Position numbers and translations under genes: made by a program. A stretch of 63,183 nt of DNA, taken from IMG/VR virus record IMGVR_UViG_3300035181_001095, positions 1 through 63,183 of that record; one strand, given 5' to 3'. Under the pieces are notes generated by a model. That model was given only the letters and a program-made list of their open reading frames with translations, ran no database searches and was not told the origin of the DNA. Positions 28,720 to 62,154 of the stretch are shown here, in pieces (the first letter of the stretch is position 1; each line of letters begins with the position of its first letter). Source of the DNA: a virus. Taxonomy: Duplodnaviria > Caudoviricetes.

Positions 28720-29067
28720 CTATTTCAGATAGACCAGGCCTTTGGAAGTCTCACCTACAAATGACCGCCAGTCGGAAAGAATTAACTCATCGGTGGCCAA
28801 AACTACCAATATAGCGGATGACATACATTCTATATTGTCCAGGCGCTCGAGTAACCAGTCAAGGCGCTCCATCAAATCCCAAATCGAGGTCTCACGGTAG
28901 GTGTCCACAATGTAATCCTTAACAGATTCAGTCAATTCAATGCCAGGCCCCAAAAATTCATTGACATGCTCAAAGATAACCTCGAGGGCCTCATCTGATA
29001 AAACCTCGGGGTCAACATACCACCGCATTTCCTGAATAAAATCATCACAGCTAATTGTTTTTAACAT
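28720..29067 (-). CDS. Early acidic protein, paralog family A
   Basis: TIS.DDFI.EM, LS.EALE.IFE, Y.E.SI, VGET.KG.VY. Confidence 0.65.
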   Translation of the reverse strand: MLKTISCDDFIQEMRWYVDPEVLSDEALEVIFEHVNEFLGPGIELTESVKDYIVDTYRETSIWDLMERLDWLLERLDNIECMSSAILVVLATDELILSDWRSFVGETSKGLVYLK

Positions 29068-29094
29068 AATTTTTTATCCTTTCTTATTTAGATT

Positions 29095-29370
29095 TTAATT
29101 TAACGGCTCCCAGTCACGGTAAAACTTGAAACCCGTGACTTTGAGTACGATATAATTCCCGCCTAACTTATCTGGCAATACTTGCAAAAATGCTTCATAT
29201 CCATCACGTAAACGCTCATACAAATAATAATGCCAGTAGATATAATGTTTTGCATGGATAAGAAACAAAAAAGAATAAGTCTCATCACGTTTCCAAGCCT
29301 TGATAAGACTATATGGCAGATTTAATCCATTGAGATAACACTCGACCTTTTCGAAGTTTGTCATTTTCAT
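29095..29370 (-). CDS. Early protein, paralog family B
   Basis: KV..YL..LNLPY; GAAAGGGGATT RBS. Confidence 0.6.
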   Translation of the reverse strand: MKMTNFEKVECYLNGLNLPYSLIKAWKRDETYSFLFLIHAKHYIYWHYYLYERLRDGYEAFLQVLPDKLGGNYIVLKVTGFKFYRDWEPLN

Positions 29371-29391
29371 GTTCGTAATCCCCTTTCATTT

Positions 29392-29673
29392 TTATTTCGG
29401 CTTAAATGTAAGTAAGCCTTCAACAGCCAACAAACACCCACCAGACGATAACACATCCACATCCGTCGTTATATGTTTTAAGTAATGTTTTCTTAAATAC
29501 TTACACCACTTTTCTACGTCCTCACAATGGACGTATATGTCGAACAAATAAACACTATAATAAAAACAGTCATGTACCCAATCACCCACAAACTCATAAT
29601 GTAGATTGGAAGCCCGTAAAATTGTGTCTATTTTAGCCCGCTCTTCTAACTTTGTGGTTAACTTGTATGTCAT
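29392..29673 (-). CDS. Early protein, paralog family B
   Basis: KI..IL.ASNL.YEF...IYVH..D...W..YL; AAGAAAGGGGATT RBS. Confidence 0.65.
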   Translation of the reverse strand: MTYKLTTKLEERAKIDTILRASNLHYEFVGDWVHDCFYYSVYLFDIYVHCEDVEKWCKYLRKHYLKHITTDVDVLSSGGCLLAVEGLLTFKPK

Positions 29674-29690
29674 GTTCTTAATCCCCTTTC

Positions 29691-30029
29691 TTAATAATCC
29701 TTATAAACTATCGTGCCTTTATCAGTCACACCCAAAATAATAGTGAATTTTGCCAGTTGATTCAATGCTATCTCGAGCGTTTCTTCATCCGTAGAATCCA
29801 CATCAAGGGTAATATCATTTAACTCAATGATATCATACACTGTGCGCTCGATAAAATCACAACTCAAAACCACAGGGTGAAACTCTATCGCTTGACCCAA
29901 ATCCTTTTGAATAGCTGTGAGATAATTGTATAAAATCTCCAACCCGTTGTAAGAAAGCGAACAGTGTGAAGACTTACTCATCACCTCGATAAAATCAGAT
30001 TTTGATAACGTGGCTAACTTGTGTTTCAT
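29691..30029 (-). CDS. Early acidic protein, paralog family A
   Basis: TLSK.DFI..M, SYNGLEIL, IEF.PV...CDF.E.TV, ILGVT..GTIV, closely matching 25528-25857. Confidence 0.7.
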   Translation of the reverse strand: MKHKLATLSKSDFIEVMSKSSHCSLSYNGLEILYNYLTAIQKDLGQAIEFHPVVLSCDFIERTVYDIIELNDITLDVDSTDEETLEIALNQLAKFTIILGVTDKGTIVYKDY

Positions 30030-30310: not shown

Positions 30311-30394
30311 TGCCCAAAGACGGACTCGAACCGTCAAGGCGTTGCCGCCGAGAGATTTTAAGTCTCTTGTGTCTGCCAATTCCACCATTTGGGC
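30311..30394 (-). tRNA. tRNA-Leu(UAA)
   Basis: GCCCAAA/TTTGGGC acceptor stem, D-loop TGGCAGAC, anticodon arm AGAGA-CTTAAAA-TCTCT, long variable arm, GTTCGAGT T-loop; CCA not encoded. Confidence 0.95.
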
Positions 30395-30459: not shown

Positions 30460-30867
30460 TTAATAATAAGCTCTAAACCTTACATGTCTAAAGATAGACT
30501 TTTTCTGGATAGTGCCATCCGGTAGCTCTTCCTCTACCGATGCACGACAACTTGTCGCCGCTACACAGCGCACGTCCTGCATGGCAAACGTCTGCCTAAC
30601 AGCATTAACAAACTGGTAAGTAGCCACCATTTCACCCTGAACCAAGATGATACTATGGGGCTGAATAACCGACTCAAGCCATTCATAGACCGGCACCAAA
30701 TGGGCCTGAATATTCCACATATTTGCATCTGCTGGAATATTAGCCCAGATGTCTAAAAACTCTTTCGGTGGATAAAGAAAATCAGTGACACCAAGAGTTT
30801 CATGAGCATCATCCTGTTGCTCCGCCGTGAGCTTGTGGTTCATCAGAACAATCATTGTTTTAGCCAT
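30460..30867 (-). CDS. csx20: Csx20-family protein (putative cyclic oligoadenylate ring nuclease; anti-type III CRISPR candidate)
   Basis: NH.LT.EQ..DA...LGV..F..P.....W.NIP, VQGE..ATY..V, ATS.R.SVE....G...K.S.F.HVRFR.Y, as in Csx20. Confidence 0.8.
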   Translation of the reverse strand: MAKTMIVLMNHKLTAEQQDDAHETLGVTDFLYPPKEFLDIWANIPADANMWNIQAHLVPVYEWLESVIQPHSIILVQGEMVATYQFVNAVRQTFAMQDVRCVAATSCRASVEEELPDGTIQKKSIFRHVRFRAYY

Positions 30868-30914
30868 TGTTGTTTCCTCCGTATGGATTTGGATTTGATA
30901 TTAACACATGAGTT

Positions 30915-31322
30915 TTAGCATGCAAAAAACTTCCTAAACCTAACGTATTGTGGCATCTCTTTTTTGATAATACTCCCATCTGGTTGCATCTCTGCAATCG
31001 TACTCCAACGTATTACTGGAGTAATACATGTAGTCTTTTTATGTTTATACATCCAATTAACAATATAACACGTTGCTACAATATCACCATCTATAAGTAA
31101 TAAATCGTAGGGCTTGGGTGATACACTCTCTAACCAATCAAAGATTGTGTTAATGTAATCTAATAAATCCCAACTACAAATCTCTGGTGGAATTGAAACC
31201 CATCTCTTTAATATCTCATCTGGTGCATAGATTATTTCATCATCCACGTTGAGATATTCTCGAACATCCTTAATCTGCACATCCGTTATCTTGTTTTGTG
31301 TTAATACAAACAACCTTACCAT
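30915..31322 (-). CDS. Csx20-like paralog with altered conserved residues
   Basis: Aligns end to end with 30460-30867 (W.SIPP, DGD.VAT, PDGSIIKK, YVRFR); CAGGAGGA RBS before ATG 31322. Confidence 0.72.
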   Translation of the reverse strand: MVRLFVLTQNKITDVQIKDVREYLNVDDEIIYAPDEILKRWVSIPPEICSWDLLDYINTIFDWLESVSPKPYDLLLIDGDIVATCYIVNWMYKHKKTTCITPVIRWSTIAEMQPDGSIIKKEMPQYVRFRKFFAC

Positions 31323-31326
31323 AATT

Positions 31327-31539
31327 CTATCCTCCTGATTCAATACAAGGGCCATTTATCCAACAGGCGTCTATTACATCTATAAAATCTTCCAAGAAAT
31401 CTAACGAATAGAGTTGAGTATCATCACCCCATTTATAAAACAAAAACAATTCATCTAACTGAATAAAAAAGCAATCTACGATTGTAAATTTCTTCTTTAG
31501 GTCTAATAAGGTTTCATCAAATGACTTCTCCATAATCAT
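31327..31539 (-). CDS. Small acidic hypothetical protein
   Basis: 70 aa; L..KKF...D.FF resembles 31536-31769. Confidence 0.55.
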   Translation of the reverse strand: MIMEKSFDETLLDLKKKFTIVDCFFIQLDELFLFYKWGDDTQLYSLDFLEDFIDVIDACWINGPCIESGG

Positions 31540-31769
31540 CCCCCCTTTATCTTCTTTAACTCTTGATTATACCAATTATTCACATCAAAGAGGTCAATTT
31601 TACAATCCCATACCAATAAGTAGATTTCAGATAGAATGTCGTTGGGGTCATCAGTTGACTTTACACGCCCCAAACACGCACGTAAATTTTCAAAAAATTC
31701 ATCAAGAACATTAAATTTTTTTTGAAAAAAATCTACCAACAAAAGCTTTTCCTGTTCTGATATAGCCAT
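31536..31769 (-). CDS. Small hypothetical protein
   Basis: 77 aa; CAGGAGGAG RBS. Confidence 0.6.
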   Translation of the reverse strand: MAISEQEKLLLVDFFQKKFNVLDEFFENLRACLGRVKSTDDPNDILSEIYLLVWDCKIDLFDVNNWYNQELKKIKGG

Positions 31770-31789: not shown

Positions 31790-32659
31790 TTATTTCTGTG
31801 CTTTATAATCTTCCCATGGAACAGTATTATATATTGCTTTATGGTTACACCATCGGGCAAAATGTTTTTGCTCTTGTGTCGGCTCATTGCCTTCCATATC
31901 TCTATATGGTTGGCAAAATGGATTAACATATATGCCTTTCAAAAACCGCACCCTTTCCAAAGCATCATCAATATCCTTAACAAGAACATAGCAAAAATAC
32001 TTGGATGGTGTAACATTATGCCATCGTAATAATTCAACAGCTTTCCGAACTGACTCCATCATTGAAAGAGAATCACAAGCTAAACGTATATATGGTGACC
32101 ATTTAACCTTACCAAGCAAACGTGCGATACCATCATCAATCAACCGTGCATCAAGCCCTTGGTTAAAATCTACTTTTAATCCCAATTTGGCTATCTTCTC
32201 AATCTGGGCTATCCCATGAGGATGAGCCAATACATTATTATCCATCAAAACAACTTCTTTATGCCTCGCAAAATCCTCTATATCGTGATGAGCTCTTATC
32301 TTGCCTTCTTTCCTTGGAACAAAACACCAAGGACACGACCTAATACAACCTCGTGTCAAAAAACCATAAGATTTATCACAATTATAAAGGCTATAATCAG
32401 GCACCATGTTTTCAACTTCATCATCTAATGTTTTGGTAATATCAAATCCTGTGCCACCATATACTGTTATTTCTGGTGGCAAATATAGATTTGATGGTGT
32501 CCATGTAAAAATTTTTGACGTATAAATTCTATCATAACCCCCCATAATCGGATTAAACCATTCCACTGTATCACCATGGGCTTTATGCCATGCAGACAGT
32601 TTCATTAAAGCTAAATTCGGATAACCGTTATTCTCATGGTCATAAAGCCCAATCTTCAT
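31790..32659 (-). CDS. Radical SAM protein (phage-type, PNLALMKLS N-domain)
   Basis: TRGCIRSCPWC CxxxCxxC, MDNNVLA, VDFNQGLDAR; GGAGG RBS before ATG 32659. Confidence 0.9.
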   Translation of the reverse strand: MKIGLYDHENNGYPNLALMKLSAWHKAHGDTVEWFNPIMGGYDRIYTSKIFTWTPSNLYLPPEITVYGGTGFDITKTLDDEVENMVPDYSLYNCDKSYGFLTRGCIRSCPWCFVPRKEGKIRAHHDIEDFARHKEVVLMDNNVLAHPHGIAQIEKIAKLGLKVDFNQGLDARLIDDGIARLLGKVKWSPYIRLACDSLSMMESVRKAVELLRWHNVTPSKYFCYVLVKDIDDALERVRFLKGIYVNPFCQPYRDMEGNEPTQEQKHFARWCNHKAIYNTVPWEDYKAQK

Positions 32660-32681
32660 TGACTTGAATACAATCCTCCGT

Positions 32682-33818
32682 TTATTTTTGTGTATCAAAA
32701 CCTCTAATAATATAATTAAAATTCTTATCTGGGGAAGTAATTCGATATATATTAGTAAGCCCAGATAATTGATAAATATATACTTGACTCCCACATACAT
32801 TCAACAAGGAAGTTAATTGAGACGCATATACAGTTAAGTCTAATTCTTTATCAGAGTCAATTGCGCAATTCATTCTTCTCTTGCGTAAGTTATCATCACT
32901 TACAATTTCAGCTTGTTGTTGTTTAGCTTTAATAGTTACTGGTCTATCACCATTACCCATCGTTGCATACTGAATATCTTGCAATAAAGCTTTAGTAGCA
33001 AACCCTGAAAAATAATCAACACCCAATTTAATAAAATCATGAACCGCAGACGGAAACTCTTTGGTAATACCACAAATCATACGATATGTATCATATTCAA
33101 AAGATATATAATCACCATGCTGCTTAACTATGATTTGGTCACTTCTTTTCTTTTTTAGTTTTGTTAACCAAGCTATTGCATCTCGTGGCACCACAATACG
33201 ACCAAAAGGCCACGCAGTCTCCATCTCAAAATCATAATACATTAAACGCATACTATCAGTGCGTAAAATCACTAAACTATTGGATTGTAAAGGATGACTA
33301 TTCAAGACTACACTATTAAAATGTGTATCTTTCCACCCTTTATTCGGTGGAATAACTTTCAATAAATTTTTGATAACATCAAAGAAATCGAATGATAAAT
33401 AAACAACATCATCAAATTCAAATGTATTTAATATATTTATATAACTATCATCTGGCTCGGATGACCAATCATTATAAAGTATATCATCCTTGCACATAAT
33501 CTTAAGAGTATCTTTATCATACTTAAACGTAACAACATCATTCTTATCAAGTGTCCTAAATGCAGGCAATAAATCAAAGGCGTGTGGAATCCCAAACATT
33601 CCTTGACCTGCACAGTTTTCAACATCAATATAAGCATAATAATCACTATACTTATAATGATTATTATTATGAGCTTTAACATTTACACATAGCTCACATT
33701 GTGTCTTTAGGATACGACAATTCACATCATAATAACATTTAGGTGTCAATAACTTGGCTTTTGACAAGGATTCTAATTTTTCCAGTAAGTCACTTACTTT
33801 GCATGTAAATTCTATCAT
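32682..33818 (-). CDS. Divergent DNA polymerase III beta-clamp-like protein
   Basis: ~378 aa; M.F......L...L start, central TD..RL, VVPR.A...L, FP and three-domain beta pattern resembling DnaN. Confidence 0.55.
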   Translation of the reverse strand: MIEFTCKVSDLLEKLESLSKAKLLTPKCYYDVNCRILKTQCELCVNVKAHNNNHYKYSDYYAYIDVENCAGQGMFGIPHAFDLLPAFRTLDKNDVVTFKYDKDTLKIMCKDDILYNDWSSEPDDSYINILNTFEFDDVVYLSFDFFDVIKNLLKVIPPNKGWKDTHFNSVVLNSHPLQSNSLVILRTDSMRLMYYDFEMETAWPFGRIVVPRDAIAWLTKLKKKRSDQIIVKQHGDYISFEYDTYRMICGITKEFPSAVHDFIKLGVDYFSGFATKALLQDIQYATMGNGDRPVTIKAKQQQAEIVSDDNLRKRRMNCAIDSDKELDLTVYASQLTSLLNVCGSQVYIYQLSGLTNIYRITSPDKNFNYIIRGFDTQK

Positions 33819-34942: not shown

Positions 34943-34954
34943 AATTCTTTCCTC

Positions 34955-34982
34955 CAAAAAATGAAAACGTTTTCATTTTTTG
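34955..34982. promoter_or_regulatory. Palindrome ATGAAAACGTTTTCAT, representative copy between the terS promoter and RBS
   Basis: Copies at 7408, 24313, 30225, 34961, 38821, 44663, 50769 and 62171. Confidence 0.75.
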
Positions 34983-34987
34983 GTCTT

Positions 34988-35058
34988 ATTATAATACAAA
35001 TTTGAATTTTGGCAAGATATAAAATAATCTTGACTTTTTTCCAAAAAAGGCTTATAAT
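34988..35058. promoter_or_regulatory. Divergent sigma70 promoters
   Basis: Minus: TTGCCA-16-TATAAT (35015-34988) toward terS; plus: TTGACT-17-TATAAT (35030-35058). Confidence 0.75.
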
Positions 35059-36220: not shown

Positions 36221-36821
36221 ATTAGTGCAGCAATTCCTCCAAGCCATGCACAAAGAAAGTGATGGCTGGGTTAACACAGCAATTACATCATGGGAAATCT
36301 ACAAAGGCAAAGAATGGCAATCTTTGAATTACAAGAGCTTCAAAGAATTTGTTAAAACAGAATTTGCCAACACGATAAGTTATGAAATGTTCCTATATAA
36401 AGTTAAAATCGGGAAAGTGATTGAAAAATACAATCTGGAACCTGAACTTTTAATTGATATGGGATGGACAAAATTCAATGAGATAGCCAAACTCGCTTTG
36501 AATGTATCTTTAGAGGCGGCCGAAGTCTTGGATATGATTGAGGAGGCTAAAGAGCTACCTTTCAGAGCTGTGCAAACAAAAATCCATGAAAAATACCGAG
36601 AAGCAAATAAAAGCCCTGAACATGTCAAATTCAGCTTGAACCCTGAACAATATGAAATCTACAAGGAGGCATTGCAAATTGCCCGTGATTTGGCAGTAAC
36701 AGGCAACCCTAATGTAGCATTGACTTATATCTGTTCAGAGTTCATCATGCACCATGCAGGGCAGGATAGCCCTACAGCCCAAGCTATCAGAAAATCCGTC
36801 GAGCAATTCGATGTGGAATGA
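36183..36821 (+). CDS. Putative DNA-binding protein
   Basis: W.....Y.SF.EF...E and G..K..E pattern (DUF3102-like, by eye); AAGGAGG RBS. Confidence 0.5.
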   Translation: MAKANQQQMVITKLVQQFLQAMHKESDGWVNTAITSWEIYKGKEWQSLNYKSFKEFVKTEFANTISYEMFLYKVKIGKVIEKYNLEPELLIDMGWTKFNEIAKLALNVSLEAAEVLDMIEEAKELPFRAVQTKIHEKYREANKSPEHVKFSLNPEQYEIYKEALQIARDLAVTGNPNVALTYICSEFIMHHAGQDSPTAQAIRKSVEQFDVE

Positions 36822-38175
36822 GCTTCACGAATGTATAGTAAAAGGCACACCTCTTATTTATATCCAAACAGAAGAGGTGAACAGGGTGGAGACTTATGTC
36901 AAAAGCATAGTTTCCACCCTGCGTAATTGTAAATATACCCCCGCTTCCGCATTGCCAACTGTCGAAGCCTGGACACAGCCACGACAATACTCACCACCCC
37001 AACAGGTGGTATTTATTAAAGGCTGGAATCATACAATTGTGAATGTCAGTTTAGAACGCATTCAAAATTTGTATCAAAAAACAGGCTTAACCGTTATTAT
37101 AGCGGGAACAAAACCCATCCCAACGGAATATAAGCAATACATATTACAGCTTATACTCCCACCATTGACTGAACAAGAACGCAAGGACATCATAAGCCAG
37201 TTTATCAATACGACAAATGTAACAAAACTTATTGATGCCACTCGAAATCTAACCACCTCTCAAATTATTGGCGCTTTAACTCACGCTATCAATCCTGAAA
37301 CCAAAAGCGTGAATATACAAAAAATTTATACTTATAAAAATCAAATTTTTAATAATCAACAATTACTAACTTATATTCCTGCCACGATTGATATGGAACA
37401 AGTCGGTGGTTTGAATACTCTTAAACAATGGTTATGCCAAACAGCCAAGATTTACCAAAATCTGGATGCTGCCATGAAATATGGACTTAAACCTGTCAAA
37501 GGGATGTTCTTATTAGGTATCCCAGGAACAGGCAAAACCCTCGTGGCAAAAATGGCAGCAACGTTGTTAAAATTGCCACTATACCAGTTTAATATTCAGA
37601 GCGTATTACATAGCTTGGTTGGGGAATCTGAACAGTATTTTTACCAGGCATTACAAACAATGGACAACCTTGCACCAGCCGTTATTCTATGTGATGAAAT
37701 CGAGAAAGCTTTTGCAGGGCATAACTCAAATAATGATAGTGGTGTAACAAATCGTTTGTTAGGAATGTTTTTAGGATATTTACAGGATGCAAATAACAAT
37801 AACTTCTTTGCATGCACAGCAAATAATATATCTCAATTACCACCTGAACTACTGCGGAAGGGTCGCTTCGATGAGATATGGTTTGTAAATACACCAACAC
37901 CATCAGATAGATTACAAATTATAAAGATACATTTACCGGAACAATACCATCATTTTAACTTGGACAAAATCAATGAATATATGACCGATTTTACAGGTGC
38001 TGAAATTGAAAATTGTATCCAACAAGCATTAAGGCAAACGTTTTATGAAAATACTCCATTAACCGAGGATATAATAATCAATCAAGCACAACAAATAAAA
38101 CCATTATGCAGTATCAAAAAAGATGAATTACAGGAATTAGTGGATAAATTTGGGAAACAAATTAGGCAGGCATAA
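36811..38175 (+). CDS. AAA+ ATPase, Ycf46-like
   Basis: VGGL..LK.W, GIPGTGKT, SLVGESE, CDEIEK, TANNI..LPPELLRKGRFDEIWFV. Confidence 0.88.
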   Translation: MWNELHECIVKGTPLIYIQTEEVNRVETYVKSIVSTLRNCKYTPASALPTVEAWTQPRQYSPPQQVVFIKGWNHTIVNVSLERIQNLYQKTGLTVIIAGTKPIPTEYKQYILQLILPPLTEQERKDIISQFINTTNVTKLIDATRNLTTSQIIGALTHAINPETKSVNIQKIYTYKNQIFNNQQLLTYIPATIDMEQVGGLNTLKQWLCQTAKIYQNLDAAMKYGLKPVKGMFLLGIPGTGKTLVAKMAATLLKLPLYQFNIQSVLHSLVGESEQYFYQALQTMDNLAPAVILCDEIEKAFAGHNSNNDSGVTNRLLGMFLGYLQDANNNNFFACTANNISQLPPELLRKGRFDEIWFVNTPTPSDRLQIIKIHLPEQYHHFNLDKINEYMTDFTGAEIENCIQQALRQTFYENTPLTEDIIINQAQQIKPLCSIKKDELQELVDKFGKQIRQA

Positions 38176-38319: not shown

Positions 38320-38805
38320 TCAATCACAAGATACTGATACAATATAATTTGCATTCTGGGCACAATCTTTAAATGTTATTGCAACACCAGCTTCCTTTAA
38401 CATATCCTGCGTCAAATTATCTGCATATCCCTGACTGTAAAAGATAGCTTTAACACCTGCATTGATAAGCATTTTGGCGCAGATTACGCAAGGGAATGTG
38501 GTGCAGTAAAGGATGGAATCAGCTACGACTATGCCATGCCTGGCAGCCTGAACTAATGTATTCTGTTCGGCATGAAGACCTCGGCATAATTCATGGCGCT
38601 CACCTGATGGTATTTTTAATTTATCACGCAGACAACCTATCTCCATACAATGACGCAGCCCTGAAGGTGCTCCATTGTAACCTGTACATAGAATACGATT
38701 GTCTTTAACCAACACCGCCCCAACCGCTCTTCGCATACAGGTTGAACGAGTAGATACCAAATAAGCAATTGCCATGAAATACTCATCCCATTCTGGTCGA
38801 TTCAT
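38320..38805 (-). CDS. dCMP deaminase (ComEB/CMP-dCMP deaminase family)
   Basis: RP.WD.YFM, RSTC.RR.VGA, GYNG, HAEQN, PC..CAK. Confidence 0.95.
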
Positions 38806-38816
38806 AACAGCTCCCT

Positions 38817-39641
38817 TCAAATGAAAACGTTTTCACTATTACGCTTAATATGACCATGTGACCATAAATAACATATACACATCTTACCCAACAAATCTTC
38901 TTGTATATACCCACACCCTTCTTCATATGATAACTGTTCCTGTGGGCTTATACTGTGTTTAGGATACTCGAAATCACAATTCAAAAATACATGCTGGGTA
39001 ATCTCATCCTTATAAGAAACTGCGACTATATCGTTATTCAAATCAACCCATGCCTGATATTGTAATTCAGGCTTATATAAAGCAACCGGTTTAACCTTGT
39101 TAATGGCAATCTTTTTCATATTCAAAAATTTTAATTCACATAATTTTTTCAAACGATTATTTATCTGCTTAAATGTCATTTGGAATTGTTCTGTAAATTT
39201 ATCATGTGAAATTCTTACGAAATCATCCCATTTCATAGCATGATATTCAGATTTATTAGCTTGAAAATACCAATATGTAATAAAATCTAATAACATTAAA
39301 TCTTTTACATCTAAAAATGTTGTTAACAAATAATTGGTTCGATTACAAATTGTTTGCTCTTTCAATGTAAGTAAATCCATATTAAATGAGATATAATCCC
39401 CATCTTGAATAATGTAATCCTTATGTATCAAAGCATCTATTGCTTTACGCATTGTATCAAAATTAACATTCTCTTGAGGATGCAAAAGACGATGTATAAT
39501 AATAACATGTTCATGAATAAATGCCCTCTTTAAACATTCCTCCCCACAAAGATATAACGCATGCAATATGACCAAATCAGACCATTTAAGTGATGGTGCC
39601 AAATGATAATAATCAATCAAATGTATAAGATTTTTTTTCAT
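38817..39641 (-). CDS. Hypothetical protein with two possible winged-helix units (regulator or initiator candidate)
   Basis: [13 protein letters not shown] and [13 protein letters not shown] wHTH-like helices; next to the putative origin. Confidence 0.45.
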
Positions 39642-55051: not shown

Positions 55052-55327
55052 ATGGATGATTTAAGCCAACAAATACAACAGGATTTTTTGAATGGTGAAA
55101 AAGCATCTCAAATTCGTAAAACTTATCAAATAGGTAAACAACGATTAGAGAAGATTTTGTGCCAAATACCTAATGAACAAATAACTACATGGAGATATTA
55201 CCCTGTTGCCAAAGACCAGATAATTAGTTTTTGGCAACAGGGATATAGATTAAGTCAAATTACCTGTATGACAGGATACCCAATAATTCTTTGTGAAAAA
55301 GTATTAAAGTATAATAAAGTTTTTTAA
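55052..55327 (+). CDS. Small double-HTH-like protein
   Basis: G....QI...Y.I and G....QI...TG repeats. Confidence 0.45.
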   Translation: MDDLSQQIQQDFLNGEKASQIRKTYQIGKQRLEKILCQIPNEQITTWRYYPVAKDQIISFWQQGYRLSQITCMTGYPIILCEKVLKYNKVF

Positions 55328-58300
55328 TCTGTTTCGTCAGCATTCGCCAGAAGGATGCCAAGTTTGGATGGTTTGCCAGATGCTCGTTTCAGAGTTTGTT
55401 TGATTGTATTCATTGTAATAAGAGGAATAACACCACCATATTTGGCAGCCTTCTGGTTGTATCTTGTAACATCATTTGTAATAATTTGGCGAATAGCATT
55501 CTCATCAGGAGCCCAACGTAACTTATCATAAATTGTATTTCTTTGTTCATCATATAATTTCTTTGTAGTATCAGCGGCTAATTTTGCTTCTGTTTCTTTT
55601 ACAGGTCGAATTGGTCTTAACCCTAATCCTGCAAGTACAGCTTCAGAGCCTGTGTATTTAATTGGTTGCCCATAAACATCTGTAACAACATTTCCATATT
55701 TTGTGAGTAAAGGTTTATTTTCAGCATAATTTGAATATGCGGATACAGCTTTTGAAAGTGATGGTGGGGCTATTCCCAAGAACATGTTTTTGAAATCACC
55801 TCGTTGTACTGCTCTATAAAGAGCCTCTGTATCCGATGATGTTCCACGCCATACACCAAATAATGTATTCATTAAACTGGGTATAGATAAATCATCAGGT
55901 ATTAAGCCAACAGACAACGATGTTGATATATCAGAGCCTAATAATGATGGTGCTCCATAGGTCAAGACATCTGCTCCTGTTTGCCCAACATGTTTTTGTA
56001 ATGTTTTATAGAACGCTTGTTTAGTATCTTTATCATCATCTGTAATCCATTGAAATGCTTTTAATATTTGGGTTACAAAAGGCACAGCTAAAGCACCACC
56101 AAACAGAGTTGTATATAAACCATTTGCCAATAATTTATCAAAATAAACTTTATTTTGTTCATTCCTGATAGTTTTATATAACCAACCTAAATAATTTACT
56201 TCATATCCTCGTAAAGTTAACATTGATGATACTATAGGATTTTTGAGAGCGATTAGTGGTTTATTAACTTTTGAAAAGATAAAAAACGCATTATCATTAT
56301 ATTTAGTACCAAAGTTTATAGCGTCCTCATTTGATAACCCTTTTTGTTTAGCCAACCGATATGCCATTAAAGCACCCATTTTACGACTTGCTAATTCCAT
56401 AGATTGCATAGGAGCCATTAAAGAAGTAAAGAGACTATGTAAATATGATGGCAAAATCATGGATGCTTCATTTCGTATTTGTGAAACAAAAGTATTTGCT
56501 GCTACACTGGTGCCTAAAATTTTATCTAATGCGTTTTGTTCTTCTGGATTTATTGTATCTAATCGCATTAAATTTTTAAGAAGTGACCAAGAACTTTGTG
56601 ATAGTCCACTTAATGCTTTTATATTGGCATTAACAAAATCCATACCTGATGTGCGTTCTGGTTTATATTGCCGCAAAGCATCCGCTTCAGCATTCATAAA
56701 ACCAAGAATTTCAGGCAGACCTACTGTAAATGGTTGTGTTAACTGTGATAAAGCACTTTTAAGACTCATACCTAACATACGCACAGTTAAAAATGTCTTT
56801 ATTGTTGCAGTTGCTTTATCAAGTACGCTGGCTGGTTTTAACATTGCTCCAGTATATTCGTTATAATATTTGAAAAGTTGTGTATCATTTTGTAACTGAT
56901 GTCTAACATCAGGACTATTTAGATATGCTTGTAATTGACTTGTGGCCGTGAGTCTTGCAATGCTATTTGACATTGCTGGTAAATAAGTAGAAATAACCTT
57001 TGGAAGATTTTTTTCAAATCCTTCTACAAGATTTTCTTGGCGCTGAATGAAACGAGATGTTGCAAAACCTCTACTCATAAAATCATTTTGTATATCACTC
57101 TGAATCATTGATATTAGTTTATCAATAGCCTTTTCATCAACAGGATGTTCTTGCTTTAGTCTTTCAGTCATATACTCAAGATACTGTTGCACAGCTGTAT
57201 TAGTAGTTCCTTCATATAATGAAGATACATTATTTGGATTTTTTGCTTTTACAATAACAATATCATTGTCTTTAACATTTCGTGGTAATTCATCAACAAT
57301 ACGCCCATTATATTGGGTTTGTAACCTCTTCATTATTTTAGCGGCTTGATAATGACCACCTGTTTGTGTGATTGTAGTAGGAGTATGCTCTCTATGTAAT
57401 TCAGCCCAGTATGATTTTGTAGTACCATCAGGGTATTGTTCATTAACCCCTTGGTAAACTTTAATAGCCCATTCGCCACGTTGCCGTAAACGAGGGGTAT
57501 AAAATTTATCAGCTGCTGTATAAGCATTAATTTGGTCATCAAAAGGTTTAATTTTGCTTAACGCATGCCCAATAAATTGATTAACAGTCTCATCTTCTTT
57601 TATATTAAATTCTTTTGGGATGACAATAGGGTTGTCTCTTAAAGAATCACTATTTTGAGCTATCCATTCAACCAAATGTTTCCGAGCATTATCAGATAAA
57701 TTAGCATATTCAGGCGTATTACTCAAAGCATAAATCACAGAATTTTTTAATGCAGTGAAATATTCGGTAGCCATTTTATCAAAAAATTGTTTGGTTTGGT
57801 GATAAATGTTAATTTCATCATTAGTTAATTTATATTTATTTTTTAATGTATTGTTATCTAATAATTTACCTTGAGCATCACTATCCCAGACGGCCTTTGC
57901 AAACATTGGGTTTTTAACATTTTCAATATCCCTATAAAATTGTTTGAATGCTGCTATGAGTAAATTACTTCTTTCCTCTGATGTTTTAAAAATGTTAAAC
58001 AATGATTTAATAACAGGATGATTGAACCATTGAGAACTAAGAAACATCCTGGCGAATGAGCTTAAACGTTTATCTCCTTTAAGAGAATCAACAACATGTT
58101 TAATAATACTAAATTGTGTAGGAACTATATCATCTTTATCAACAGAAAAACCAAGTGCTTTAAGTTGTTTAGTTTCAAATTCGTTTTGAGCTTTTCTAAA
58201 ATCTGCAAAAATAGACCTATCTTTATTTTTTTGTATAGCCTCAAAAATATCATCAGCATTATTAAAACCTAATCCGTTTATAGCGTTATTTACTCTTTCA

Positions 58301-61300
58301 AAGAAGTTTGCAATTTTCTTAAATATACCTGTTTGATTAGGTTCCATTATTTTATCAGCAAAGGCATCAGCAGCTTGTTCCATCCAATGTTCTTTACCAT
58401 TACTAAAAGCCTTTTTTAGAGTTGTAATTTCTTTTGGTGTAAAATAACCACTGTTTACTAATGTTTCAAAAACTTCATGCAAAGCTGTGCGTTTAGCTTC
58501 GGCGTCTTTTAAACCCGCACGCAACCAAATTAATGGAGCATTTGAATTTGATAGAATTATATTAACACCTCGAACTTTTTGTAAATAGGCTTTTAAGGCT
58601 AAATCAGCAGGTATGGTTTGGTCATGTCTGCCAATGGCTTCTAAAATATCTTTATCTGTAAATCCAAGAGATTTTAATTTGTCAGATATGTTATCAAAAT
58701 TAACAAATTCAATTTTAGCTGGAGTTAGGTCACCTAATGTTTGACGCAACCAATTAGTTAATTTTTGTGATATTGAATTTTGATAATAAACAACATTACC
58801 ATTTTGAATATCTCGTTTAGCTTGTTCCTGTAAAACTGGTTTAATATCTTCAGGTACTTTTTGCACCATATCTAATACTTGTGGCACTGTCATTTTACCT
58901 GTTGCTAAATCATCTTGTAACTGACTAATAGTTTGTTCGGTTGGATGTGTTAATTCTTTTTTTGATATGGTTGGTTTAATTTGTGGTTGAATAGTTTGGT
59001 TTTTTGTGACAGCATCAAAAAATCTTTGCTTCAATTGTTCTTTATATGTCTGTAACTCATCACGTTTAGCGGGGTAATCTTGTGGTGATTCATATCTGGC
59101 CTCTTTGACAGCATCTTCTTTAGCTTTAAGATTATCAGTTTCCCCTAAAACTTTAGCTATTGTATGTATATCATTATCTGTAGTTTGATTTTTAAATGTT
59201 TCAAATAAGTTGTGATTTACAATATTTGCTTTTAATTTATTATATGTAATTAATTCATCTGGAGTTAATTGTGGATTTTTTACAAATGTATTTGGTATTG
59301 GTTCAGCTGTATTTTCAGATTTGGTAACCGTACCTTGTTTTTCTTGTAATTTAGGTTCACTTGATGCTACCTCTGGATTTTTTCCTACTTCTGGATTTTG
59401 TTGAACATCTATAGGTGTGGATTCCTTATCTACTGTAGTAATATTATCAATGGCCTGTTTTTGTTCTGGTGTTATTTTTAAAGTTTTCCTATTTGTAGTA
59501 TTTGAATTTGCTTCATTATTTGGTTCTTCTACTGATTGTTTTTCCACATTATGTATATTTATTTCTGGTGACGTTTCAGGTAATTTTTGGTTTACTACAT
59601 TAGTTTCTTCAATTGGACTTTTTTTTTCTGAAGCTGTTGGATTTTGAACTCTATTACTCTGAAGATTTTGTTCTGTTGGATTTTGTAATTTTTGATATGA
59701 CTCTTTAGCGTCAAGCCGTCTATCAGCATAATACTTAAATTTTTTTAGTAATTCCGTAGCACTTTTATCTTGACCAATTATTTCTTGTGACTTCCCTGGT
59801 TGATTAAAAATAGCATAATATTGGTTAGTTTTTGTATCTTTGCGTATATCAACAAAATAATCTTTATTTGTTTCACTATATGCTCTTGCAACATATTGTG
59901 TTCCAGGAATTGATTCTTTATATGGTGTTGCATTAATCCTATCTTCTATTGTTTCAAAATTTGTTGGTTGCGTCTTTATTGATGGAGTTTCCGTTGGTTG
60001 TGTAGTTTCAGGTTCAGTTGATGTTGTAGCTTCAGGTTGAGTGGGAGCTGCCATAGAACTTAGTTTAGCATTTTCTTCTAATCTATCTAATATAGGTTGT
60101 GTATTCCTTAAAACTTCTTCGGCAGTTTTACCATACCCAATTACTTCATAAGGCTTACCTGGCACATTTTGAACTGCAAAAAATGTTGGTTCAGGACTAT
60201 TAGGGTCTTTATATATATCAATAGAAATACCACTGTTACTCTCATGATTCAAATTTCGTCCAACAAGTTGTAATCCTGGTATTTTTTCACCAGACATAGT
60301 GGAAGTAATTTGATTTATAATATCTGTATCGTGTAGAGGTTCTGAAAATTCTTGGGAGGATAAGGTTGGCGATTCATCTGTAATACCTACAATAGCTCGA
60401 CGTTGTCCTGGTTCAACTTCTGTTTGAAAATATTTTTGAGTTTGAGGGTCATAAAAAACTTCTGTGCCACTTTCATTTCTATCTAATACTTTAACTGGTA
60501 TAAACCCCTCTGGAATAGACCCATCATGTATTGTATCTTCCAATTGACCAGCTCTAACCTTTTCAATTGGCATATGATAAGATTTTGGAATATTCGGATA
60601 ATCAGATACTTGTTCAGGATGCGCTTCCTGTGATGTTTCAGGTTCAGACTGTGCTTCTTGAACAGGAGGGGCTTCTGGAACAGGCTGCGCTTCCTGTGAT
60701 GTTTCAGTAGGTTCAGGCTGTGCTGCTTGATTTACTGCTTCCTGTTGACGAGCATTAACGGTATCTGTATATACCTTGTTTATATCTGCCACATCAGATG
60801 TTTCATGTAAAATTGGATATGTGCCTGTCTTTGGGTCTATTTCAGTCAAATCCTGTAAAACATATGTCTTAACCTTACCATCATTATCTTTGACTAAAGT
60901 CATGACAAGCTTATTAGGTCTATCAAGTAATTGTGTAAAATTATCTTTATGGTAAACTTCAAAGTTACCATTCATTATTGGTTCTTGTGATTGATTATTG
61001 CCAGGTTTTGTTAAATCTATTTTTGGTAAATCACCTGAGTGCATTGTATAAGGCATTGCTTCTTTAATTACATCAGGTATTTGCTGATTATCTTTATTAT
61101 AAACTTTATTTAAGTCCATAACTAATGGTATAATATCTTTATATTTAGCAAAATTTTGAGCTATTTCATCTGGATTATCTGTCCAATTAGTATAGGCTTG
61201 TTGAACTAATTGTTGGTTTTCAGGAGATAAGTTATCGTAATTCTCATTATGTAAAAGACTAAATTGTGCATGTAATTTAGCTGCGTCTTCAGGTGATAAT

Positions 61301-62154
61301 TGTGCTCCAGACGTTGCATTTTGTTGATTCTTTGCCAACCTTTCCTTTAGAGTTTTAGCACCTACTGTTCCTGCGCCAAGAACAGCACCAACAAGAGCAT
61401 TTTCAAGGCCTTCTTTGCCTATATCTGATGCAGTAACATTTGGATTAATACCTGATGCCCCTTCAAGAGTTTTATTCAAAGCGCCTTGCGCTCCCATCGT
61501 AACAGCATCAGCTAATGCAGCCTTACCAGCTTCCAGCAATTTTGCTTTTAATGTATCAGGCACAACATTAGATGCTAATACCCCACGAGTAACTTTGCCA
61601 AGAATACCAGGGGCTACTGTATTGACTAACCCAAATGCTTCAGGATATAGACCATTCGATTGGTTAGGAGGCATTTCTTGATGTGCCTGTTCAGCAGATG
61701 ATGCAAAAAGTGCTGGGAGTGTTACTTCTGGAGCGGCAGCAGAAGCAGCCATAATTGGTAAAGCACTTACAACTCCATGCTCTATTTTAGCAATTGGATT
61801 TGTGTATATTTGTTCAGGGTTTCCTCCATAATTTTGATTAACCCGTTGCTGCCAATCTTGTGCTACATGTTGCATTCCTTGTTGTAGAACTCTGAATATA
61901 CTATCAGGTTGTGCCCCAAATATTCTATCAGGAACATAATCAAGGGCTTGGCCAACTAAATTTAATGTTTGAGGAGCCATACTCTCGGCAGCATGAAAAG
62001 GTGCTTGTAGTAACTGTTGGCCTACAGGCAATGCAGTCTGTTGAACTTGTGGTATTCCAAACTGTTGTTTATATGAATTTATTTGGTCATCATTATAACC
62101 TTGTTGTCTTAATGTATTTTCAAATAATTGAATACGTTGCTGTAAATCGTCCAT
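55324..62154 (-). CDS. Giant internal virion/DNA-ejection protein (2276 aa)
   Basis: Ala/Gly-rich N-terminal membrane-like segment, P/E/Q/T linkers, helical C-terminus; last gene of the late block; GAGGTG RBS. Confidence 0.75.
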   Translation of the reverse strand: MDDLQQRIQLFENTLRQQGYNDDQINSYKQQFGIPQVQQTALPVGQQLLQAPFHAAESMAPQTLNLVGQALDYVPDRIFGAQPDSIFRVLQQGMQHVAQDWQQRVNQNYGGNPEQIYTNPIAKIEHGVVSALPIMAASAAAPEVTLPALFASSAEQAHQEMPPNQSNGLYPEAFGLVNTVAPGILGKVTRGVLASNVVPDTLKAKLLEAGKAALADAVTMGAQGALNKTLEGASGINPNVTASDIGKEGLENALVGAVLGAGTVGAKTLKERLAKNQQNATSGAQLSPEDAAKLHAQFSLLHNENYDNLSPENQQLVQQAYTNWTDNPDEIAQNFAKYKDIIPLVMDLNKVYNKDNQQIPDVIKEAMPYTMHSGDLPKIDLTKPGNNQSQEPIMNGNFEVYHKDNFTQLLDRPNKLVMTLVKDNDGKVKTYVLQDLTEIDPKTGTYPILHETSDVADINKVYTDTVNARQQEAVNQAAQPEPTETSQEAQPVPEAPPVQEAQSEPETSQEAHPEQVSDYPNIPKSYHMPIEKVRAGQLEDTIHDGSIPEGFIPVKVLDRNESGTEVFYDPQTQKYFQTEVEPGQRRAIVGITDESPTLSSQEFSEPLHDTDIINQITSTMSGEKIPGLQLVGRNLNHESNSGISIDIYKDPNSPEPTFFAVQNVPGKPYEVIGYGKTAEEVLRNTQPILDRLEENAKLSSMAAPTQPEATTSTEPETTQPTETPSIKTQPTNFETIEDRINATPYKESIPGTQYVARAYSETNKDYFVDIRKDTKTNQYYAIFNQPGKSQEIIGQDKSATELLKKFKYYADRRLDAKESYQKLQNPTEQNLQSNRVQNPTASEKKSPIEETNVVNQKLPETSPEINIHNVEKQSVEEPNNEANSNTTNRKTLKITPEQKQAIDNITTVDKESTPIDVQQNPEVGKNPEVASSEPKLQEKQGTVTKSENTAEPIPNTFVKNPQLTPDELITYNKLKANIVNHNLFETFKNQTTDNDIHTIAKVLGETDNLKAKEDAVKEARYESPQDYPAKRDELQTYKEQLKQRFFDAVTKNQTIQPQIKPTISKKELTHPTEQTISQLQDDLATGKMTVPQVLDMVQKVPEDIKPVLQEQAKRDIQNGNVVYYQNSISQKLTNWLRQTLGDLTPAKIEFVNFDNISDKLKSLGFTDKDILEAIGRHDQTIPADLALKAYLQKVRGVNIILSNSNAPLIWLRAGLKDAEAKRTALHEVFETLVNSGYFTPKEITTLKKAFSNGKEHWMEQAADAFADKIMEPNQTGIFKKIANFFERVNNAINGLGFNNADDIFEAIQKNKDRSIFADFRKAQNEFETKQLKALGFSVDKDDIVPTQFSIIKHVVDSLKGDKRLSSFARMFLSSQWFNHPVIKSLFNIFKTSEERSNLLIAAFKQFYRDIENVKNPMFAKAVWDSDAQGKLLDNNTLKNKYKLTNDEINIYHQTKQFFDKMATEYFTALKNSVIYALSNTPEYANLSDNARKHLVEWIAQNSDSLRDNPIVIPKEFNIKEDETVNQFIGHALSKIKPFDDQINAYTAADKFYTPRLRQRGEWAIKVYQGVNEQYPDGTTKSYWAELHREHTPTTITQTGGHYQAAKIMKRLQTQYNGRIVDELPRNVKDNDIVIVKAKNPNNVSSLYEGTTNTAVQQYLEYMTERLKQEHPVDEKAIDKLISMIQSDIQNDFMSRGFATSRFIQRQENLVEGFEKNLPKVISTYLPAMSNSIARLTATSQLQAYLNSPDVRHQLQNDTQLFKYYNEYTGAMLKPASVLDKATATIKTFLTVRMLGMSLKSALSQLTQPFTVGLPEILGFMNAEADALRQYKPERTSGMDFVNANIKALSGLSQSSWSLLKNLMRLDTINPEEQNALDKILGTSVAANTFVSQIRNEASMILPSYLHSLFTSLMAPMQSMELASRKMGALMAYRLAKQKGLSNEDAINFGTKYNDNAFFIFSKVNKPLIALKNPIVSSMLTLRGYEVNYLGWLYKTIRNEQNKVYFDKLLANGLYTTLFGGALAVPFVTQILKAFQWITDDDKDTKQAFYKTLQKHVGQTGADVLTYGAPSLLGSDISTSLSVGLIPDDLSIPSLMNTLFGVWRGTSSDTEALYRAVQRGDFKNMFLGIAPPSLSKAVSAYSNYAENKPLLTKYGNVVTDVYGQPIKYTGSEAVLAGLGLRPIRPVKETEAKLAADTTKKLYDEQRNTIYDKLRWAPDENAIRQIITNDVTRYNQKAAKYGGVIPLITMNTIKQTLKRASGKPSKLGILLANADETD

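Follow-up and report, generated by a model that had tools for sequence, protein, structure and literature searches.

A pair of adjacent genes encoding proteins of the Csx20 family was found in a complete viral genome (IMG/VR record IMGVR_UViG_3300035181_001095; 63,183 bp, with direct terminal repeats), which is called the window below, in the sense of the whole stretch of DNA that was analyzed. One gene (copy 1) keeps nearly all of the positions that are conserved across the family, while the other (copy 2) has replaced most of them, including two histidines, and is conserved in related phages. We lean towards a reading in which copy 1 is a ring nuclease that removes cyclic tetra-adenylate (cA4) and so would counter type III CRISPR immunity, with copy 2 as a retained non-canonical, and probably non-catalytic, partner. 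Ring nucleases are the best-documented viral route to defeat type III CRISPR signaling, and to our knowledge the only viral ring nucleases characterized so far are AcrIII-1 and one viral SAVED protein.

The window encodes a set of tailed-phage proteins (a portal or head-tail adaptor, the large terminase and a family A DNA polymerase) together with DnaB-like and other helicases, a ribonucleotide reductase, a sliding-clamp-like protein and a radical S-adenosylmethionine (SAM) protein. No match to Cas10 of either kind was found among the proteins of this complete phage genome, and no family of repeats with at least three regularly spaced copies, such as a CRISPR-like array would form, is present in the window. 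An initial annotation, made from the sequence before any database search, had described a phage with no CRISPR locus, which agrees with these searches and with the terminal repeats. No tyrosine integrase, serine recombinase or resolvase was found in the window. Inference of the host failed, as the nearest cultured phages were at most 41% identical in the large terminase and 33% in the DNA polymerase, and their hosts are various Proteobacteria.

Both genes belong to the Csx20 lineage

Copy 1 matched all 124 positions (1-124) of the NCBIfam profile CAS_Csx20 (NF040559) and scored 103.8 bits, where the cut-off is 70. Copy 2 matched the same full span with 62.8 bits (E 4e-17), which is under the cut-off; its homology to the family is clear, yet it falls short of the 'equivalog' standard, and its orthologues scored 51.9-60.9 bits against the same profile. 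Of the PADLOC models for Csx20, the best matched copy 1 with an E value of 1.5e-31 and copy 2 with one of 8.6e-22. The two proteins are both 135 amino acids long and are 32% identical to each other (E 2e-25). PF27247 (named 'MJ1673' in the protein atlas) is assigned to their relatives in a large protein collection. Neither protein matched Pfam at E values up to 1 in a local copy that did not hold PF27247, and hence there was no DUF1874 match either; PHROGs gave no match for copy 1 or copy 2, and a sequence search of solved structures returned a single chance-level match (E 1). Judged by the profile matches, membership of the Csx20 (MJ1673, CARF-like) lineage is genuine for both genes. The initial annotation had named two adjacent paralogs of about 135 amino acids and had assigned them to Csx20, and the lengths, the pairwise comparison and the full-length NF040559 and PADLOC matches uphold both statements.

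Copy 1 is canonical and copy 2 is degenerate at the conserved positions

The motifs of copy 1 are N10-H11, Q77-G78-E79, T105-S106-C107-R108 and F126-R-H128-V-R-F-R132, and the corresponding stretches in copy 2 read Q9-N10, D78-G79-D80, V103-I104-R105 and P124-Q-Y126-V-R-F-R130. All of the motifs quoted in the initial annotation are present as it wrote them. In order to place these differences within the family, conservation was surveyed in the best 150 of 880 matches (E ≤ 0.001; 431 at E ≤ 1e-10) from a profile search of 1.84 billion representative proteins, in which the query profile included both clades. Csx20 domains were cut from 159 proteins and rows with more than 90 profile positions were kept, giving 158 rows from 157 proteins; the short sequences P0019 and P0112 were dropped.

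Thirteen alignment columns were conserved in 79-100% of the 158 rows. In copy 1 numbering these are His11 (92%), Gln17 (100%), Trp41 (91%), Asp72 (87%), Gln77 (79%), Gly78 (99%), Thr105 (89%), Thr/Ser106 (94%), Arg108 (92%), Glu112 (85%), Phe126 (94%), His128 (96%) and Arg132 (97%). At least 11 of the 13 are kept in 144 of the 158 domains. Copy 1 keeps 12, with the replacement of Asp72 by Ser as its sole departure. Copy 2 keeps five, as do its two nearest relatives, and this is the minimum among the 158 domains. Its replacements are His11 to Asn, Gln77 to Asp, Thr105 to Val, Ser106 to Ile, Glu112 to Ala, Phe126 to Pro and His128 to Tyr, along with Arg108 to Trp with an Arg one position earlier. 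P0010 keeps six of the 13, and the only other row at six is P0072, a 116-amino-acid fragment with gaps at three of the 13 columns.

Both histidines are present in 143 of the 158 rows and both are absent in only four, namely three members of the copy 2 clade and P0068, where the missing first histidine is an alignment gap at that column. The description of copy 1 as canonical and of copy 2 as devoid of both histidines, also given in the initial annotation, is therefore borne out by the 12 and five positions that they keep. Copy 2 is not devoid of charged residues: it retains Lys11, Arg105, Arg128 and Arg130, all four of which are invariant in its clade.

Copy 2 changed rapidly and is now constrained

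Close relatives of copy 1 share 95%, 65%, 64%, 61% and 48% identity with it, and the orthologues of copy 2 share 90%, 76% and 78%. Scans of public contigs returned few relatives, on viral contigs (L003, L008 and L009), metagenome contigs (L006 and L007) and genome sequences (L004 and L005). Megablast of the 6-kb region against 50,697 cultured phage records gave no match, and tblastn against the same records gave none for copy 1, copy 2 or the relative P0020. With another relative, P0014, as the query, tblastn found one single-copy gene in these records, in Fusobacterium phage JD-Fnp4. Two other loci show the cellular context of the family. On L007, a csm1-csm5 operon (Cas10/Csm1 to Csm5) is followed two genes further downstream by a canonical Csx20 gene, an arrangement that confirms the CRISPR association of the family, and in L004 (Laceyella) a Csx20 relative lies near a ParA-like gene instead.

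A maximum-likelihood tree was built from 161 rows and 130 columns by a quick search, in which many forks were unresolved. The copy 1 and copy 2 clades together form a 16-row clade with a support of 83 in the Shimodaira-Hasegawa-like approximate likelihood ratio test (SH-aLRT), and the copy 1 side has a support of 93. The copy 2 clade is supported by an SH-aLRT of 100, and its stem is 0.85 changes per site long; its internal and terminal branches are short. P0011 branches as the sister of this clade (support 95) and is intermediate in form, with nine of the 13 conserved positions kept. From this branching pattern, the history of copy 2 appears to be one of a burst of change and then constraint.

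Ratios of nonsynonymous to synonymous divergence (dN/dS, Nei-Gojobori) were 0.05-0.19 for copy 1 in three pairs and 0.18-0.39 for copy 2 in all six pairs. Intact copy 2 orthologues of 135 amino acids occur at all four related loci (window, L003, L008 and L009). Together with the intact reading frame and a perfect Shine-Dalgarno sequence, the orthologues and the dN/dS values indicate that copy 2 is maintained by purifying selection and is not decaying.

The canonical and degenerate genes recur as a pair

A degenerate-type gene adjoins a canonical-type gene in four of the five loci examined (window, L003, L008 and L006). In the first three, the copy-2-type gene is followed by the copy-1-type gene in the same orientation after 47 nt. 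In L006, a more distant metagenome contig, the canonical gene comes first and is followed by an intermediate gene of the P0011 type, so that the order is reversed. In the fifth locus, L009, the copy-2-type gene is found by itself in the syntenic position, immediately behind two clamp paralogs, and no second Csx20 match was found across the whole contig, which at 14.9 kb covers only about 24% of a genome.

The two members of the pair differ in their recent histories. Between the window and L003 the synonymous divergence (dS) is 1.46 for copy 1 (30460-30867 against L003 3646-4050) and 0.17 for copy 2, which shows that copy 1 alleles have been exchanged between related phages without their neighbor.

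Two Csx20 domains may also be joined in one chain, as in P0015 (299 amino acids) and P0068 (293 amino acids); the second Csx20 domain of P0015 does not have the first conserved histidine. In addition, a group of long proteins (about 560-625 amino acids, e.g., P0064, P0076, P0080, P0083 and P0129) carries a C-terminal Csx20 domain. A HEPN-like Arg-x4-His motif was seen by eye in two of the long Csx20 fusions, and a PADLOC model named 'CARF2--CARF_HEPN_CSX20' exists.

Some features of the neighboring contigs were recorded alongside. The lone copy-2-type gene of L009 is preceded by tandem sliding-clamp-like paralogs of 376 and 378 amino acids (L009 3696-5976). The L006 pair is flanked by many proteins built of repeats of about 33 residues (ankyrin-like by eye) and by a 419-amino-acid cysteine-rich repeat protein (L006 1-7189).

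Predicted structures and the modeled complex

AlphaFold2 models of both copies were built with alignments of 126 rows. The mean predicted local distance difference test (pLDDT) was 96.4 for copy 1 and 95.7 for copy 2, the predicted template modeling score was 0.86 for both, and the two models have an identical order of strands and helices. Foldseek found no match to them in the PDB at E ≤ 0.001. The names listed in a structural comparison of the models were Csm6, Can2, Cad1, CalpL and Cap5. In this comparison, rows with Z values differing by less than 1 count as tied, and for that reason a structural neighbor with bound cyclic tri-adenylate (cA3) carries no special weight.

The initial annotation had proposed modeling of homo- and heterodimers, and this was run for the copy 1 plus copy 2 pair only, which passed its controls. 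The complex scored 0.80 (0.80, 0.79 and 0.81 in three runs) and the best control 0.00; as many as 58 of 80 solved complexes, but only two of 110 mismatched pairs, attain a score of 0.80, counts that are rough as our own alignments were used. Contacts agreed to at least 98% between runs and the pLDDT of the partner was at least 87. The predicted interface is pseudo-symmetric and includes the conserved copy 1 positions 77, 78, 105, 106 and 132. The model shows that copy 2 would have kept a surface compatible with the dimer of the family, and it implies no preference for copy 1 over itself. Interface conservation was also tried as a discriminator and rejected: copy 1 of the window and copy 1 of L003 differ at nine of 30 interface positions (by eye), which is uninformative as it is about the level of the whole protein (64% identity).

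A probable cA4 ring nuclease with a proposed non-canonical partner

In our preferred reading, the dimer of copy 1, with its conserved pocket kept, would bind cA4 and cut it to linear products as its cellular relative does. Destruction of cA4 during infection would then switch off the cA4-activated effectors of the type III CRISPR system of the host. Copy 2 would have arisen within the same Csx20 sub-branch, where a burst of change replaced eight of the 13 positions, including both histidines and the Thr-Ser/Thr-x-Arg motif. Selection would have held it constant since then, with the fold and the dimer surface kept. As copy 2 is constrained and is predicted to retain this fold and surface, it would still be a functional subunit, but a non-canonical one in which the usual cA4-cutting chemistry of the family is lost. 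Beside copy 1, it may either form its own dimer with a reshaped pocket or serve as the partner of copy 1.

Several points weigh against this reading. The ring-nuclease activity of copy 1 and its anti-CRISPR role are inferred from family and context, and the loss of catalysis by copy 2 is deduced from conservation, because the parts of the published Csx20 text that were available contain no mapping of catalytic residues. Through Arg105, Arg128, Arg130 and Lys11, copy 2 could bind nucleotide, or even cut it, in a different way. More divergent members of the family lie beyond the best 150 of 880 matches in which conservation was surveyed. A cA4-signaling type III system cannot be asserted for the host, since the host is not inferable from relatives of at most 41% identity. 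Lastly, the pass of the complex model says little about binding in cells, as such a result is to be expected for any two paralogs from a homodimeric family.

What copy 2 may do

The initial annotation had suggested that copy 2 could be a sponge for cyclic oligoadenylate (cOA), an enzyme for another ring size or a subunit of a heterodimer. Its observations were confirmed and its interpretation was partly supported, with all three suggestions compatible with the data on copy 2. Among the possible roles, an independent dimer ranks above a heterodimer, and a heterodimer above a cA4 sponge; redundancy and decay are both unlikely.

The role placed first, although tentatively, is an independent second activity, in which copy 2 forms its own dimer with a remodeled pocket that binds or degrades another immune signal (a cOA of another ring size or an oligonucleotide of the CBASS type) and thereby widens the counter-defense of the phage. 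Purifying selection on a remodeled pocket would fit such an activity, as would the invariance of Lys11, Arg105, Arg128 and Arg130 in the clade. The copy-2-type gene stands alone in L009, and its history is separate from that of copy 1. There is also some latitude of substrate in the family, as cellular Csx20 is reported in the published text to cut cA3 at high enzyme concentration. However, polar residues of the pocket are changed to Val, Ile and Pro, which resembles loss more than retuning, and the cA3-bound structural neighbor, being tied with others, has no special weight.

A heterodimer is possible but less probable than an independent dimer. Copies 1 and 2 would then form an asymmetric dimer, as a two-gene counterpart of the fused CARF pseudo-dimer in SAVED domains, and its pocket would have one canonical and one remodeled half, which would suit a ligand without two-fold symmetry or a single cut of the ring. 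The complex model argues for this role, as does the presence of conserved copy 1 positions in its interface. So do the adjacency and co-orientation of the genes in the window, L003 and L008, the comparable pair in L006, and the two-domain chains P0015 and P0068, one of which also lacks the first histidine in its second domain. On the other hand, a model pass of this kind is expected for paralogs of a homodimeric family, the gene order is reversed in L006, the copy-2-type gene of L009 stands alone in the contig sequence available, and the dS values point to separate histories. In its strictest form, which we consider unlikely, the pair would be an obligate asymmetric heterodimer, a 'split SAVED' made from two genes with one half-site catalytic and the other remodeled. 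If this were true, the heterodimer might handle signals that are poor for a symmetric Csx20 homodimer, such as the odd rings cA3 and cyclic penta-adenylate (cA5), or linearize cA4 by a single cut.

It is doubtful that copy 2 is a cA4 sponge, which would bind cA4 without cutting it and so sequester the signal. Both histidines are gone from copy 2 while its fold and several arginines are retained, which speaks for a sponge. However, the Thr and Ser/Thr positions (89% and 94% conserved), which are likely to touch the ligand, are lost as well, and a sponge seems redundant beside an active nuclease for the same ligand. The available text on Csx15, a protein of another family, also notes that the large amounts of signal made by type III systems could make sponging fruitless, and its authors saw no Csx15 in phage genomes (10.64898/2026.01.21.700848).

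Both copies could also be ordinary, redundant cA4 ring nucleases in which the replaced residues are dispensable for catalysis, which we find improbable. In other families, metal-independent ring nucleases rely on a variety of residues, and the Csx20 catalytic residues are unmapped in the portions of published text at hand, both of which would allow for such dispensability. The replaced positions are, however, 79-96% conserved in the 158 domains, where the copy 2 clade is an extreme outlier, and a published survey, as described in its text, removed hits without key conserved residues as false positives (PMC12409355). Least credible of all is that copy 2 is a decaying, functionless duplicate or pseudogene: its score below the curated family cut-off and its long stem branch would fit decay, but this candidate was rejected on the dN/dS values in six of six pairs and the intact orthologues at all four related loci, and the perfect ribosome-binding site and confident fold model also stand against it.

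Relation to known systems

Cellular Csx20 has been shown by experiment to be a cA4 ring nuclease, and the background on which the initial annotation relied (degradation of cOA by Csx20 and an anti-CRISPR role of viral ring nucleases) is confirmed in the published text (PMC12409355; 10.64898/2026.01.21.700848). According to the text of the work on the cellular enzyme, cA4 was fully degraded at 1 µM enzyme and cA3 at 10 µM, while cyclic hexa-adenylate (cA6) was uncut in the 1 µM assay (10.1101/2024.09.24.614671; PMC12409355). In the same work, no other stand-alone ring nuclease was as frequent as Csx20 in type III loci, and in an AlphaFold3 model of the Csx20 dimer conserved residues cluster where the ligand is presumed to bind (PMC12409355). 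The window proteins resemble cellular Csx20 (NF040559; PF27247) in their full-length profile match, their size (about 125-135 amino acids), the 12 of 13 positions kept by copy 1 and a predicted fold that may be CARF-like, with a dimer in the model. They differ in being encoded by a phage without cas genes, in occurring as two paralogs and in the score of copy 2 below the cut-off. As viral genes, the pair would be expected to lie outside any cas locus.

Phage Csx20 as a device against type III immunity is not new, since both the phage proteins and the proposed role are already published (PMC12409355; 10.64898/2026.07.27.740549), and the initial annotation had overrated the novelty in this respect. 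Among 28,114 cultured phage genomes, Hoikkala et al. report four with Csx20 (PMC12409355), a count given as five in their preprint. In a further preprint, from 2026, csx20 homologues lie in operons under the ribbon-helix-helix regulator Aca14 and are proposed, in the text available, to be a co-opted cas gene similar in role to AcrIII-1 (10.64898/2026.07.27.740549). The window pair is like these published genes in belonging to a phage or mobile element and in being a proposed counter-defense gene; in contrast to the Aca14 operons, no ribbon-helix-helix gene was recognized beside it (Pfam, two small upstream open reading frames [ORFs]). As with the published genes, an anti-CRISPR role of the window pair is suggested by family and context.

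Novelty is limited to the conserved pairing, in which one Csx20 paralog is canonical and the other strongly degenerate. The texts of PMC12409355 and 10.64898/2026.07.27.740549, considered without the supplementary phage tables, make no mention of tandem or degenerate phage Csx20 copies. Literature searches, in which sources were seen in part, found no work on a heterodimeric or inactive-paralog ring nuclease of phages and no experimental test of phage Csx20 in counter-defense. The published filter, which removes hits without key residues, would have excluded proteins such as copy 2, and the pair thus bears on whether surveys of this design miss a functional class. It also offers a natural experiment, with an apparently active enzyme beside a paralog without the conserved pocket that has been selected in several related phages. 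Comparison of the two proteins could map the residues for Csx20 chemistry and reveal asymmetric heterodimers or a conversion of ring nucleases to binders.

Other families provide partial parallels. AcrIII-1/Crn2 (DUF1874) resembles the window proteins in its job as proposed here, that of a small dimeric enzyme of viral origin which counters type III systems by the destruction of cA4, but it is an unrelated family with another fold, whereas Csx20 is CARF-like. The viral SAVED ring nuclease, as presented in the available text (PDB 9r8s; PMC12751052), is one fused chain like other SAVED proteins, while the window has two separate genes of 135 amino acids each whose heterodimer is a model. Csx15 is reported to bind cA4 well, to cut it very slowly and to be absent from phage genomes (10.64898/2026.01.21.700848, text seen in part); it is a precedent for a ring-nuclease-like protein that mainly binds, though from another family, copy 2 being derived from Csx20. 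The Csx20 fusions show two Csx20 domains in one unit as well as Csx20 combined with cA4-activated effectors. Most conserved positions are kept in both halves of the fusions, whereas the second copy in the window is a separate and strongly degenerate gene.

Gene organization and genomic neighborhood

Coordinates of the pair and of the surrounding features are collected in Table 1. Copy 2 is transcribed first and is separated from copy 1 by 47 nt. For copy 2, the listed start was preferred to an upstream ATG at 31355, as the L003 and L009 orthologues have the same start. The G+C content around the pair is 0.36, which is similar to that of the neighboring genes. The tRNA-Leu gene downstream of copy 1 is the sole Rfam/ARAGORN match in the window, and L003 has a DNA-methyltransferase-like ORF (by eye) in its place.

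Table 1 Features of the Csx20 pair and its surroundings in the window
Feature	Position	Strand	Remarks
Copy 1, canonical Csx20-family gene, predicted cA4 ring nuclease	30460..30867	-	135 amino acids + stop
Copy 2, degenerate Csx20-family paralog	30915..31322	-	135 amino acids + stop
Shine-Dalgarno GGAGGA of copy 1	30875..30880	-	7 nt before ATG; read from sequence
Shine-Dalgarno GGAGGA of copy 2	31330..31335	-	7 nt before ATG (31322); read from sequence
Small acidic ORFs without family, one flank	28720..30029	-	
tRNA-Leu (anticodon UAA)	30311..30394	-	65 nt downstream of copy 1
Small acidic ORFs without family, other flank	31327..31769	-	
Radical SAM protein	31790..32800	-	matches phrog_9298 (E 1.8e-87) and, weakly, Pfam Radical_SAM; upstream of the pair by about 0.5 kb
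AT-rich perfect palindrome, 30 nt	34954..34983		operator-like in appearance
Sigma-70-like site	35015..34988	-	11 of 12 matches
Sigma-70-like site	35030..35058	+	11 of 12 matches
ATPase	36754..38172	+	473 amino acids; PADLOC IetA E 1.5e-21; phrog_8638 E 4.6e-85
'dCTPase' (PADLOC)	38323..38820	-	166 amino acids; E 5.5e-39
Large ORF	55324..62154	-	2276 amino acids; no PHROG match at E ≤ 1e-5

The pair lies within a long leftward string of genes that starts at a strong promoter-like site in a divergent control region. Between this site and copy 2 the string comprises, in order, a gene of terminase-small-subunit-like or helix-turn-helix type, the genes for the clamp and the radical SAM protein, and two small acidic ORFs. 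In this control region (34954-35058) sigma-70-like sites face in both directions, and the palindrome lies between the minus-strand site and the first leftward gene. A promoter scan of the whole window found 28 sites against a shuffled mean of 27, which is no enrichment, so the promoter is a lead only. L003 is otherwise syntenic but lacks both of these small ORFs as well as the radical SAM gene, and its pair directly follows the clamp gene.

The small acidic ORFs on either side of the pair include some that are weakly alike, namely a 70-amino-acid and a 77-amino-acid product (E 0.007) and products of 112 and 115 amino acids (E 0.002), of which the former matches phrog_9974 (function unknown). 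Flanks of such small ORFs may mark an anti-defense neighborhood. Further away, the protein matching IetA is a relative of a defense-system ATPase, and the one matching the PADLOC 'dCTPase' is probably a nucleotide-metabolism enzyme of the phage.

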